Shown: one piece after another, positions 13,178 through 15,700 of the stretch | Layout of the letters: each line of letters starts with the position of its first letter | Numbering within the stretch: position 1 is the stretch's first letter | Source of the DNA: Candidatus Aenigmatarchaeota archaeon | GTDB taxonomy: Archaea > Aenigmatarchaeota > Aenigmatarchaeia > JACPZZ01 | Length of the DNA stretch: 64,000 nt | NCBI GenBank assembly: GCA_016195275.1 | Contig: JACPZZ010000019.1 | Span: 6,382 to 70,381, forward strand | Direction of reading: 5' to 3' | Translations under genes and position numbers: made by a program | Notes under the pieces: generated by a model | Database searches by the model: none | Seen by the model: the letters and a program-made list of their open reading frames with translations, nothing else | What the model was told of the DNA's origin: nothing

Positions 13178-13214
13178 AATATATATTCCTTCAAAGAAAC
13201 GATATAAGCTGAAA

Positions 13215-14417
13215 ATGACAGGGATGAAAATCTACAATAGCCTGACCGGCAAAAAAGAGAAAGCAGGGAGACCAAGGCCGCTGGGAACCTATGTTTGTGG
13301 CGTAACGCCCTATGATGTCACGCACCTCGGCCATGCGTTTACATACATATTTTTCGATGTACTGATAAGATATCTAAAGTTTAAAAACTTCAAAATCACC
13401 TACGTGCAAAATGTCACAGACATAGACGACGACATAGTGAAAAGGTCTAAGCGGGACAACGTTAACTGGAAAAAACTAGGGAATATAAATCTGAAAAAAT
13501 ATTTGCGGGACATGAAGACGCTGAACAACGCACGGCCGGATATTATGCCAAGGGCGTCGGAGAACATCAAGGAGATCATAACCATAGTGAAAGCGCTTGT
13601 CACAAAAGGGCTGGCGTACGAAGGGGACGGAAATGTCTATTTTTCTGTAGACAGGTATAAAAAATTCGGCCAGCTAAGCAGGATTCCAAAAAATAAAATG
13701 CTGGCGATAGCGAACCAGCGTGGAAACTTTCCTGACGACCCGAATAAAAACGATCCGTTGGACTTTGTGCTGTGGCAGGCGAAAAAAGAGAAACATGAAC
13801 CATCATGGAATTCGCCGTGGGGTTATGGCAGGCCGGGCTGGCACATAGAGTGCAGTGCGATGTCTATGAAACACACCGGAAAAACCATCGACATCCATGG
13901 CGGCGGCAGCGACCTAATTTTCCCGCACCACGAGGCAGAGATAGCGCAATCAGAGAATTATACAGGTAAAAAATTTGTAAGATTGTGGATGCATGTTGCC
14001 ATGCTGAAATACAGGGGGGAAAAGATGAGCAAATCCAAAGGAAACCTTATTCTGGTATCAGATCTGTTGCGCAAGTACACGTCCAATGCCATAAGGATAA
14101 TGCTGCTTTCGAACCATTACAGGAAACAGTGGGAATATAAGGAAAACAGGTTAAAGGCTGCGTCAAAAACAGACAAATTGTTTTCAAAAGCACACGCTAC
14201 TTTATCGCGCGGCAAAAAGAATCTCAGCTTCGCATCTCATAGAAAAAGATTTTATGAAAGCCTGGATAATGACATTGGTACGCCTGCTGCTTTTGAGGCG
14301 TTAAAGAGGCTATGCAGGACAGTTATTAGAAGCAAAGGTACAGATATAGGAAAGGCTAAAGCTTTTCTGGGGGAAGCGTTTAACATTCTTGGGCTGGTGT
14401 ACCGATGGAAGAGATAG
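13215..14417 (+). CDS. Class I cysteine ligase of the CysRS/MshC family (short form, 400 aa)
   Basis: HIGH-type motif [11 protein letters not shown], then [32 protein letters not shown] and KMSKS. Only about 130 aa follow KMSKS. Confidence 0.85.
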
Positions 14418-15130
14418 ATTTGAAAAATAAAATAATAATGGTGATTGGCGCGCACCCCGATGATAACGACTTTGGCGTAGCCGCAACAGTTTCTAAGGCT
14501 TCTAAGCTTGGATCAAAGGTAATCTATGTAGTTGCAACAAAAGGCAACCGCGGCACGCATGACGAGAGCATGAACGAGGAAAAGCTTGCAGAAATGCGCG
14601 AAAAGGAGCAAAGAGATGCTGGCAGAATACTAGGCATTTCTGAATTTGAATTTCTGGGGTACAATGACGGAGAGCTTACCGTTAATATGGAGCTCAAAGA
14701 AAAAATAACAAGGCTCATCAGGAAACACAAACCTGGCATTGTATTTACAACGGATCCTAGCAAGTTCTATTATAAAGACCGCGGTTTTATAAACCATTCC
14801 GACCATCGCGCGATAGGCGAGGCTGTGATAGACGCTGTTTATCCGTTGGCGCGGGATTTTTTATTCTTCCCTCAACATGCGAAAGAAGGATTGAAATGGT
14901 TCCATGTCAAAGAAATATGTTTCTCGAGTTTTGACCCTGCTGACATAAACAGCTTTGTAGATGTAAGCGATGCAATTAATTTAAAGGTCAAGGCTCTTGA
15001 GGCGCATATAAGCCAGATATCGAATATAGACCGTTTAAAACAGAGAATGCTGGAACGGGCCGAAGCAATCGGGAAAGCGGCAGGCTGCAAGTATGCGGAA
15101 GGTTTCGTGAGAATCAAGCTGCCGCCATAA
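14405..15130 (+). CDS. PIG-L / LmbE-family N-acetylglucosaminyl deacetylase
   Basis: 241 aa with the zinc-site motifs GAHPDDNDFG and HSDHRAIG. It overlaps the ligase gene by 13 nt. Confidence 0.85.
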   Translation: MEEIDLKNKIIMVIGAHPDDNDFGVAATVSKASKLGSKVIYVVATKGNRGTHDESMNEEKLAEMREKEQRDAGRILGISEFEFLGYNDGELTVNMELKEKITRLIRKHKPGIVFTTDPSKFYYKDRGFINHSDHRAIGEAVIDAVYPLARDFLFFPQHAKEGLKWFHVKEICFSSFDPADINSFVDVSDAINLKVKALEAHISQISNIDRLKQRMLERAEAIGKAAGCKYAEGFVRIKLPP

Positions 15131-15163
15131 CCATTTTTAAATTTAACATACCATTATGGCTTA

Positions 15164-15700
15164 ATGGCATTAAATATCATGGAATGGCCGGGCATAGAGT
15201 ATTATAAGCTAGCCCGCGCAGAGGGGCCAAAGGGCAGAAACGTTTTTCTTGCAGAACTGGCTTCTGAGCTGGAAATTGCAGGCCTTCGTGTCGAGGAAGC
15301 TATGGTGATTTCCAGAGGACAAGAATCCAATCTTCACAGGGAGCTGAAAGAGATTACAAGGCGGTTGGGAGCTGTTTATTGTGATGGCTGTGTAGAGTGT
15401 TACACAGAGAATGGGGTGAATGTTGCAATTGTGGCAGTGGACAAGCCCGAACCTTTGAACAACTCGGGAAGGTATGCAATTTTCTCAACCTTTACGAAAC
15501 CTTACATAGGAGACCCTGTTGCCGAATACGTGACAGGTATGGAAAGGCTGTGGCGCACGCATAGGGACGGAATAAGGCAGGGAGACAGGCTGATTATATA
15601 TCAGTCTATGCTGGAAACAGAGCTTAGGGAAGTGTTTGACAAGCTTGGTGTAGGCTTTGCCAGCGTTGGCAGATATAACAGCATCCGTACCAAAATATGA
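15164..15700 (+). CDS. Hypothetical protein (178 aa)
   Basis: ORF with protein-like composition. No motif recognised. Confidence 0.45.
   Translation: MALNIMEWPGIEYYKLARAEGPKGRNVFLAELASELEIAGLRVEEAMVISRGQESNLHRELKEITRRLGAVYCDGCVECYTENGVNVAIVAVDKPEPLNNSGRYAIFSTFTKPYIGDPVAEYVTGMERLWRTHRDGIRQGDRLIIYQSMLETELREVFDKLGVGFASVGRYNSIRTKI

Follow-up and report, generated by a model that had tools for sequence, protein, structure and literature searches.

MshC is a known paralog of cysteinyl-tRNA synthetase (CysRS) (PMC2922099, PMC9437257). The msh genes have been reported solely from Actinobacteria (PMC6282198), and according to a 2020 review neither the mycothiol (MSH) genes nor MSH itself are found in Archaea (PMC7278568). 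What sets apart another CysRS variant, the CysRS* of Desulfobacterales, is that its gene is linked to a SelB paralog and to an opal-reading tRNA-Cys (PMC5389517). We analysed a 64,000 nt stretch of DNA (hereafter the window) from a Candidatus Aenigmatarchaeota archaeon (contig JACPZZ010000019.1), which carries a short CysRS-family ligase gene of the MshC-containing clade (positions 13215..14417, + strand; 400 aa, PF01406) and, overlapping its end, a gene for a PIG-L/LmbE-family zinc de-N-acetylase (14405..15130, + strand; 241 aa, PF02585). The host is a DPANN archaeon whose 1.07 Mb genome, in 34 contigs and ~83% complete, contains an archaeal small-subunit (SSU) rRNA. An earlier note, made from the window sequence alone, had proposed that the pair belongs to a low-molecular-weight thiol pathway resembling that of mycothiol or bacillithiol. 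Our analysis suggests that the two proteins probably constitute a cysteinyl-aminosugar synthase, possibly a thiol synthase, encoded by a horizontally spread two-enzyme module.

In the proposed mechanism, the PIG-L protein would strip the N-acetyl group from a small molecule containing N-acetylglucosamine (GlcNAc), leaving a free 2-amino group. The short ligase would then use ATP and L-cysteine to form Cys-AMP, with the thiol selected by zinc as in CysRS and MshC, and would pass the cysteine to the sugar amino group rather than to a tRNA, giving a product of the form Cys-GlcN-X (GlcN, glucosamine). Cys-GlcN is the core common to mycothiol and bacillithiol. The ligase is thus predicted to be a tRNA-independent L-cysteine:aminosugar ligase, and the PIG-L protein the supplier of its free-amine, GlcN-type acceptor. 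We infer this chemistry, the identity of X discussed below and the role of the product as a low-molecular-weight thiol from the observations that follow.

Such a pathway would be a new version of the MshB/MshC logic, in which an MshC-clade ligase is combined with a deacetylase resembling diacetylchitobiose deacetylase (Dac) and BshB, in an archaeon equipped with a normal CysRS as well. A full-text search of the literature yielded no description of a module of short ligase and PIG-L protein outside Actinobacteria. The two genes should be easy to express, and they offer a concrete candidate thiol pathway for the reduced genomes of DPANN archaea and of bacteria of the candidate phyla radiation (CPR). 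If the product is a new cysteinyl-aminosugar, the mycothiol/bacillithiol family would be extended; if the proposal is true, an aminoacyl-tRNA synthetase paralog would have been recruited once and then spread across domains.

The short ligase and the cell's own CysRS

The genome encodes a full-length canonical CysRS on another contig (G000:C34:31205-32575). This protein of 459 aa matches positions 1-465 of the cysS model TIGR00435 with 486 bits, is 38% identical to the short ligase and scores 258 bits on the MshC model, versus 359 for the short ligase. A single tRNA-Cys(GCA) was detected with ARAGORN (introns allowed), ~560 nt upstream of the canonical cysS gene. This tRNA gene (G000:C34:30526-30640) carries an intron and is an instance of a tRNA gene paired with the gene for its own synthetase. 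The same search of the genome revealed no tRNA-Sec and no opal-suppressor (UCA) tRNA, and there are no tRNA genes in the window. The cell's CysRS is a different protein, of which the short ligase is a paralog.

It had also been considered that a short C terminus might be normal for CysRS in this lineage. In 50 relatives from the host's class, canonical CysRS measure 441-534 aa, which ruled this explanation out.

Like MshC, the short ligase is a CysRS-derived enzyme of class-I fold and ~400 aa that has no anticodon-binding domain and carries a Zn(Cys,Cys,His) site, the GxTPY loop, and the HIGH and KMSKS motifs. The CysRS catalytic domain (PF01406, 366 bits) spans residues 20-317; the HIGH motif is represented by H37-L-G-H40, and KMSKS lies at 270-274 with 126 residues after it. 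The match to TIGR00435 (cysS, NCBIfam; 398 bits) covers only model positions 1-375 of 466, so the anticodon-binding part is absent. An AlphaFold2 model of the ligase (predicted local distance difference test score 94.9) agrees, since it stops after a helical bundle, at residue 392, with no further domain and leaves the anticodon-binding domain of tRNA-bound CysRS (1u0b) uncovered (TMt 0.79). Both results uphold the loss of the distal anticodon-binding part that had been read from the sequence.

The residues by which MshC contacts its substrates have been described: the zinc ligands C43, C231 and H256, together with T46, T83, Y48, H55 and the KMSKS loop (PMC9736012). Their equivalents in the ligase are C28, C213 and H238, T31, T68, Y33, H40 and K270-S274, and all are invariant or nearly so in 120 members of the ligase family. 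Because the contacts to cysteine, zinc and adenylate are all kept, the cysteine-adenylation site should be intact, and adenylation of cysteine is predicted for this enzyme.

Other features are common to the ligase and MshC and are not found in canonical CysRS. These include the TPYD..THLGHA signature, which the earlier note had recognised together with the TY that follows it, YVQNVTD, a tryptophan in NW(K/R)xLG (W-xx-LG) and, after KMSKS, GNLxLVS. Likewise present in both are P32, a two-residue insertion (R169-G170) and P173, which 89-100% of canonical CysRS do not have; the insertion, part of an ERGxxPDxPxK element, corresponds to a gap in 89-100% of canonical sequences. It sits in the QAGA/MSGA motif of CP1, which reads the acceptor stem's first base pair in CysRS (PMC5389517). 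Moreover, the basic residues R42, K73 and K185 of E. coli CysRS, conserved in 89-94% of canonical sequences, are replaced by F42, D73 and Q188. Superposition of the AlphaFold2 model gave its lowest root-mean-square deviations with MshC (1.9-2.2 Å versus 2.7-3.0 Å for CysRS).

The ligase also resembles canonical CysRS (CysS; TIGR00435; E. coli structures 1LI5 and 1U0B) in its Rossmann catalytic, CP, stem-contact and helical-bundle domains, with 41-42% identity. It differs from CysS in being a second copy with an interrupted CP1 motif and substituted basic residues, and in standing apart phylogenetically. Its difference from MshC is one of sequence, the two being only 35-37% identical, and of setting: the DPANN host has no recognisable MshA or MshD (MshD was not searched for genome-wide), and the partner deacetylase is not MshB-like. 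The predicted order of action, downstream of a PIG-L-family deacetylase, is that of MshC.

Family, phylogeny and coupling to the deacetylase

A database search with the ligase matched at least 8000 proteins. The best 120 matches are ~400 aa long and 50-58% identical to it, and their named sources include 'bacterium', Parcubacteria/Patescibacteria and metagenome-assembled genomes (MAGs) of Deltaproteobacteria. In NCBI they are labelled cysteine--tRNA ligase, and JGI calls many of them MshC; such divergence is an annotation issue, as NCBI-type rules would give the first name to the window's gene too, JGI uses the second for its relatives, and neither name is established. We surveyed scores on the MshC model TIGR03447 in 41 Actinomycetota genomes and in genomes of Levybacteria (CPR), Dehalococcoidia and Chloroflexia. 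Bona fide MshC proteins score 662-676 bits, short forms 366-422 bits and canonical CysRS 215-316 bits. One Acidimicrobiales MAG (G061) encodes two short MshC-like paralogs (G061:C1:2166979-2169284 and 1452269-1453345; 411 and 407 bits), neither of which reaches the MshC cutoff, and one of them lies directly beside the canonical cysS gene.

Unrooted trees were computed with IQ-TREE, in a quick run (LG+C20) with 81 sequences and in a careful run with 66. In both, the canonical CysRS of bacteria and archaea (32-35 sequences) are split from a group that contains the short enzymes and true MshC. The split is supported by a Shimodaira-Hasegawa-like approximate likelihood ratio test (SH-aLRT) value of 99 in the quick run and by ultrafast bootstrap/SH-aLRT values of 100/100 in the careful run, and it occurs in 100% of 200 bootstrap trees. 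True MshC is nested among short forms of Actinomycetota, and the ligase of the window falls outside the bona fide MshC subclade, in a well-supported subclade (97 in the quick and 99/97 in the careful run) that it shares with the metagenomic family and with one copy each from a relative (G060) and from Dehalococcoidia. The canonical cysS of the genome groups with its ortholog from the same genus. Thus the ligase belongs to the MshC-containing clade and does not cluster with archaeal CysRS, as a phylogeny suggested in the earlier note might have shown it to do.

Approximately unbiased (AU) tests rejected trees in which the short ligase joins the cysS of its own lineage (delta lnL 134, p = 3e-5), which rules out a recent duplication of that gene, and trees in which the two short copies from DPANN genomes fall with archaeal CysRS (p ~1e-51). 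When the ligase was used in a scan of genome contigs, mostly canonical CysRS were retrieved because the pattern WHIECSAM is common to both kinds of enzyme; short forms were found only at loci L045-L047 and L066, and the scan thus contributed little on synteny.

The association of the ligase with the PIG-L protein is supported by three independent lines of evidence: synteny, co-occurrence and gene fusion. A PIG-L gene adjoins the ligase gene in 6 of 11 metagenomic relatives on contigs with flanking sequence, and both gene orders exist. It lies downstream in five of the six, with an overlap of 4-20 nt or a gap of 43 nt, and upstream in one, with an overlap of 4 nt. None of five named genomes, including G060, has an adjacent PIG-L gene. 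Among 60 relatives of the host, six of them from the same genus, the short ligase was found in G060 only (52% identity), and the same is true of a close PIG-L ortholog (43% identity, 141 bits; at most 56 bits in the others).

Evidence for fusion came from a search of 1.84 billion representative proteins with the PIG-L sequence as query. One protein of 634 aa (P0123) has an N-terminal part 46% identical to the ligase and a C-terminal part 54% identical to the PIG-L protein, with both domains detected by Pfam. A second ligase-PIG-L fusion (P0272, 648 aa) is merely 50% identical to the first, which makes an assembly artefact unlikely. The pairing noticed in the window is therefore conserved, in that the adjacency recurs in distant bacteria and is joined by two fusions. 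The PIG-L domain also occurs in other combinations, being fused to DinB_2 in P0152 (455 aa) and to a lantibiotic-dehydratase N-terminal domain in P0238 (1214 aa); these PIG-L domains are 37-38% identical to that of the window. DinB_2 is the superfamily of the bacillithiol and mycothiol S-transferases.

The PIG-L protein matches PF02585 with 108 bits. Like Dac, BshB and MshB, it has the PIG-L/LmbE fold and the AHPDD and HxDH motifs, whose residues (H17, D19, D20, H131, D133 and H134) do not vary among eight orthologs linked to the ligase; with these zinc and acid-base motifs kept, the deacetylase active site should be intact. All of its NCBIfam scores are below the respective cutoffs (in brackets): 96.6 for BshB1 (182.5), 90.5 for BshB2 (195), 49.8 for Mca (277) and 35.5 for MshB (224). 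Its best matches among solved structures are diacetylchitobiose deacetylases of Thermococcales (8BGN, 3WE7 and 3WL4; 101-114 bits), compared with 61 bits for BC1534, 43 bits for BshB and no match for MshB. The family assignment of the earlier note is thus correct, and the special kinship to MshB and BshB that went with it gives way to a closer one with diacetylchitobiose deacetylases. The window's protein differs from Dac in that its gene is overlapped by, and elsewhere fused to, that of a cysteine ligase. Dac works with a glucosaminidase in chitin catabolism, not with a ligase. The genome encodes a second PIG-L-domain protein (G000:C29:9195-9926; 243 aa, 46 bits on PF02585), which has no NCBIfam match at E <= 1e-10 and is unrelated to the ligase-linked subfamily.

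The module is sporadic, occurring in 2 of 61 genomes of the class, and the nearest relatives of its ligase are bacterial; the one of highest identity given here (P0002, 58%) has among its contig neighbours a sigma-54 activator and further genes of bacterial type. GC content, GC content at third codon positions and codon usage of both genes in the window are typical for the host genome, and this native composition rules out contamination or a recent transfer of the pair. An old horizontal acquisition, not contamination, fits these data.

The sporadic distribution could also be that of a functionless, decaying remnant, or of a part of a specialised-metabolite pathway for an aminosugar antibiotic or a lincosamide-like compound. 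The latter idea draws on the presence of PIG-L domains in settings of natural-product synthesis, such as LnmX, the fifth-best match of the PIG-L protein in the PDB, and the lantibiotic-dehydratase fusion P0238. It conflicts with the lack of any biosynthetic cluster near the two genes, both in the window and in the contexts of 11 relatives. Decay is at odds with two intact open reading frames (ORFs) in which the catalytic residues are all conserved and the codon usage is native, and with a very large family (at least 8000 matches) that is also represented in reduced genomes quick to lose dispensable genes. We assign only a minimal probability to either form of this explanation.

Alternative functions and the acceptor

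Several observations weigh against a cysteinyl-aminosugar synthase. Those that concern the ligase favour another assignment, according to which it is an additional CysRS, independent of the anticodon, whose substrate is tRNA-Cys or some special tRNA, for instance under stress or in the manner of CysRS* with its opal-reading SelC*-tRNA, and its adjacency to a PIG-L gene is unrelated. The ligase clears the cutoff of the cysS equivalog model (398 bits; cutoff 340), and its 359.2 bits on TIGR03447 do not reach the MshC equivalog cutoff of 485.1. In pairwise comparison it scores higher with E. coli CysRS (326 bits) than with Mycobacterium smegmatis MshC (278 bits). The residues for adenylation are all intact, the fold is equally near to that of CysRS (template modelling scores of 0.86-0.91), and CysRS variants without the anticodon-binding domain still charge tRNA (PMC5389517). 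Furthermore, the unrooted tree resolves the short clade poorly at its base, and the AU test did not reject a position of the ligase alone beside the canonical group (delta lnL 23.8, p = 0.157).

Set against this assignment are the complete canonical cysS gene and its tRNA-Cys. No second tRNA-Cys, tRNA-Sec or opal-suppressor tRNA was found in the window or genome. Unlike the selC*-selB*-cysS* arrangement of Desulfobacterales (PMC5389517), the locus has no tRNA gene and no selC*-selB* context (SelB was not searched for genome-wide), and the neighbours of the ligase gene encode a nuclease and the PIG-L protein. The acceptor-stem motif of CP1 is broken by an insertion of MshC type, three basic residues that canonical enzymes conserve are gone, and the fusion with a deacetylase, the co-occurrence and the synteny make no sense for a tRNA synthetase. 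We consider it very unlikely that the short ligase is a second CysRS.

Other observations of the adverse kind concern the completeness of the module and its pathway. Of 16 further contexts that we examined, 10 have no PIG-L gene adjacent to that of the ligase, and in G060 there is no linkage between the two. In the 83%-complete genome of the host we found neither a match for BshC (TIGR03998) nor a DinB-type S-transferase. The best of its six genes for GT4 glycosyltransferases reaches 128 bits on the MshA model, against a cutoff of 462, and 116 bits on that of BshA, against a cutoff of 274. All six are far under these cutoffs and were dismissed as candidates for MshA or BshA, so that the search recommended in the earlier note produced no qualifying gene. 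As for MshD, the NCBIfam scan gave the GNAT-like gene near the module no match against an MshD model, and no genome-wide search for MshD was made.

An MshA-like GT4 gene is likewise missing from G060 and from a CPR genome. Such genes (316-504 bits) are present in Dehalococcoidia and in all six Actinomycetota with short ligases; three Actinomycetota without a short ligase have them as well. In one deltaproteobacterial member of the ligase family, a full-length MshA-like GT4 gene (357 bits) is adjacent. DinB_2 is absent from the host genome (G000), G060 and the CPR genome G062, and was set aside as uninformative for use as an independent thiol marker. These results divide the thiol-pathway proposal of the earlier note. 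Its MshC-clade ligase and deacetylase partner are borne out, and mycothiol or bacillithiol as such is an unlikely product, given that the first-step glycosyltransferase, BshC and a thiol-dependent transferase were not found.

Because an MshA/BshA-type glycosyltransferase is lacking and the deacetylase is Dac-like, the acceptor may be free GlcN (X being nothing), or X may be a second GlcNAc (as in chitobiose) or a scavenged glycoside, and not inositol or malate made by the cell itself. It is probable that X differs between lineages, with a salvaged GlcNAc-type sugar as its possible source in this archaeon. In a Parcubacteria genome (L013; GCA_016203945.1), a gene of NADP-malic-enzyme type (L013:7913-9067) shares 4 nt with the 3′ end of the PIG-L gene that is linked to the ligase. 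This operon of ligase, PIG-L and malic enzyme is a hint that the aglycone of that lineage is of malate type.

Inositol-1-phosphate synthase is encoded in both DPANN genomes with the module and is missing from the CPR genome G062. Inositol as part of the acceptor is thus possible in this organism and not general to the family. The inositol-1-phosphate synthase ORF of the host (G000:C14:15973-18507; 844 aa) is itself unusual, in that its PF01658 match is split in frame by ~1.4 kb. The insert has LAGLIDADG-type motifs (LADGNF and LSGDGG) and ends '...LVHN|T'; it has the appearance of an intein that contains a homing endonuclease.

The presence of this inositol-lipid precursor enzyme in both DPANN genomes also bears on the possibility that the module cysteinylates GlcN on a membrane or surface glycoconjugate, such as a GlcN-archaetidylinositol or glycosylphosphatidylinositol-like lipid, a lipid-linked glycan or an envelope polymer, and that no soluble redox thiol is made. 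PIG-L is named as the family of the GlcNAc-phosphatidylinositol de-N-acetylase, enzymes that use a soluble thiol were not found, and six generic GT4 genes reside in glycan clusters of the genome. Both proteins of the pair, however, are predicted to be soluble, with no apparent signal or membrane segment, and the module also occurs in CPR bacteria without the synthase (G062). The nearest characterised relatives (MshC, Dac and BshB) use small soluble substrates, and the fusion of PIG-L to DinB_2 suggests the chemistry of small-thiol conjugates. A role in glycoconjugate modification appears quite unlikely to us.

The cysteinyl-aminosugar proposal can be taken further, to a version that we offer as speculation and think unlikely in this full form. 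DPANN archaea and CPR bacteria would make a minimal new thiol, Cys-GlcN or Cys-GlcN-GlcNAc, from salvaged GlcNAc or chitobiose by means of a Dac-like deacetylase and an MshC-clade ligase, which are sometimes fused, and would need no dedicated glycosyltransferase or acetyltransferase. The product would represent an ancestral or stripped-down core of mycothiol and bacillithiol, and would be the first such thiol in Archaea.

Layout of the locus and neighbouring genes

Both ORFs of the pair lie on the + strand where they had been placed in the earlier note. The PIG-L gene begins with an ATG at 14405 and the ligase gene ends with a TAG stop codon at 14415-14417, so that the two genes, as the sequence itself shows, share 13 nt out of frame (14405..14417, + strand), an arrangement of translational coupling. 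This junction also has an overlap, of 4-20 nt, in L013, L015, L186, L187 and L189. An alternative start codon of the ligase gene, an ATG at 13224, would give a form of 397 aa as in the database entry.

Upstream of the ligase start is a divergent intergenic region of 37 bp (13178..13214, + strand) with AT-rich, TATA-like elements (ATAATATATATT and GATATAAG), which by its sequence is a putative archaeal promoter of the two-gene unit. Downstream of the PIG-L stop codon, a T/A-rich spacer of 33 nt (15131..15163, + strand; CCATTTTTAAATTTAA...) is a possible terminator and/or promoter, judged likewise from the sequence, between the pair and an ORF of 178 aa (ORF178; window positions 15164-15700, + strand). 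This ORF lies directly 3′ of the PIG-L gene and has no Pfam or NCBIfam match. No homolog besides itself was found among 5.8 billion proteins, and it is missing from all related loci; ORF178 is an orphan gene, or no gene at all.

Several genes near the pair had been described as a thiol-redox neighbourhood. Pfam agrees with the individual calls of an FNR-like reductase (PF00970 and PF00175), a CPWC glutaredoxin and an AhpC/TSA (Bcp-like) protein. The FNR-like, glutaredoxin and Bcp genes adjoin the module in no relative, and the proposed functional neighbourhood is not upheld. We used ORF178 and the GSDH-like, FNR-like, glutaredoxin, GNAT-like and nuclease genes as tblastn queries against all related loci, and no neighbour was conserved, so the redox neighbourhood was rejected as part of the system. 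The 337-aa protein suspected of having a GNAT fold has a weak match only (Acetyltransf_9, E = 0.0066; GNAT_ablB, 63 bits with a cutoff of 205). Its candidacy for MshD was abandoned, as the match is just of this weak GNAT_ablB type, the NCBIfam scan gave none for MshD, and the gene is not conserved beside the module. The module includes neither the redox neighbours nor the GNAT-like gene. The statement that the window holds no GT4 gene is accurate: all six genomic GT4 genes are on contigs C17 and C28.

In another MAG (L186; GCA_043814215.1), a small glutaredoxin gene (L186:3607-3840) lies ~1.2 kb upstream of the ligase/PIG-L pair, the sole other thiol-redox gene near the module in the contexts examined. 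Elsewhere in the host genome, the match to the SSU rRNA model (1478 positions) spans 3334 bases (G000:C2:760-4093), and ~1.8 kb of insertions or introns are apparent within it.

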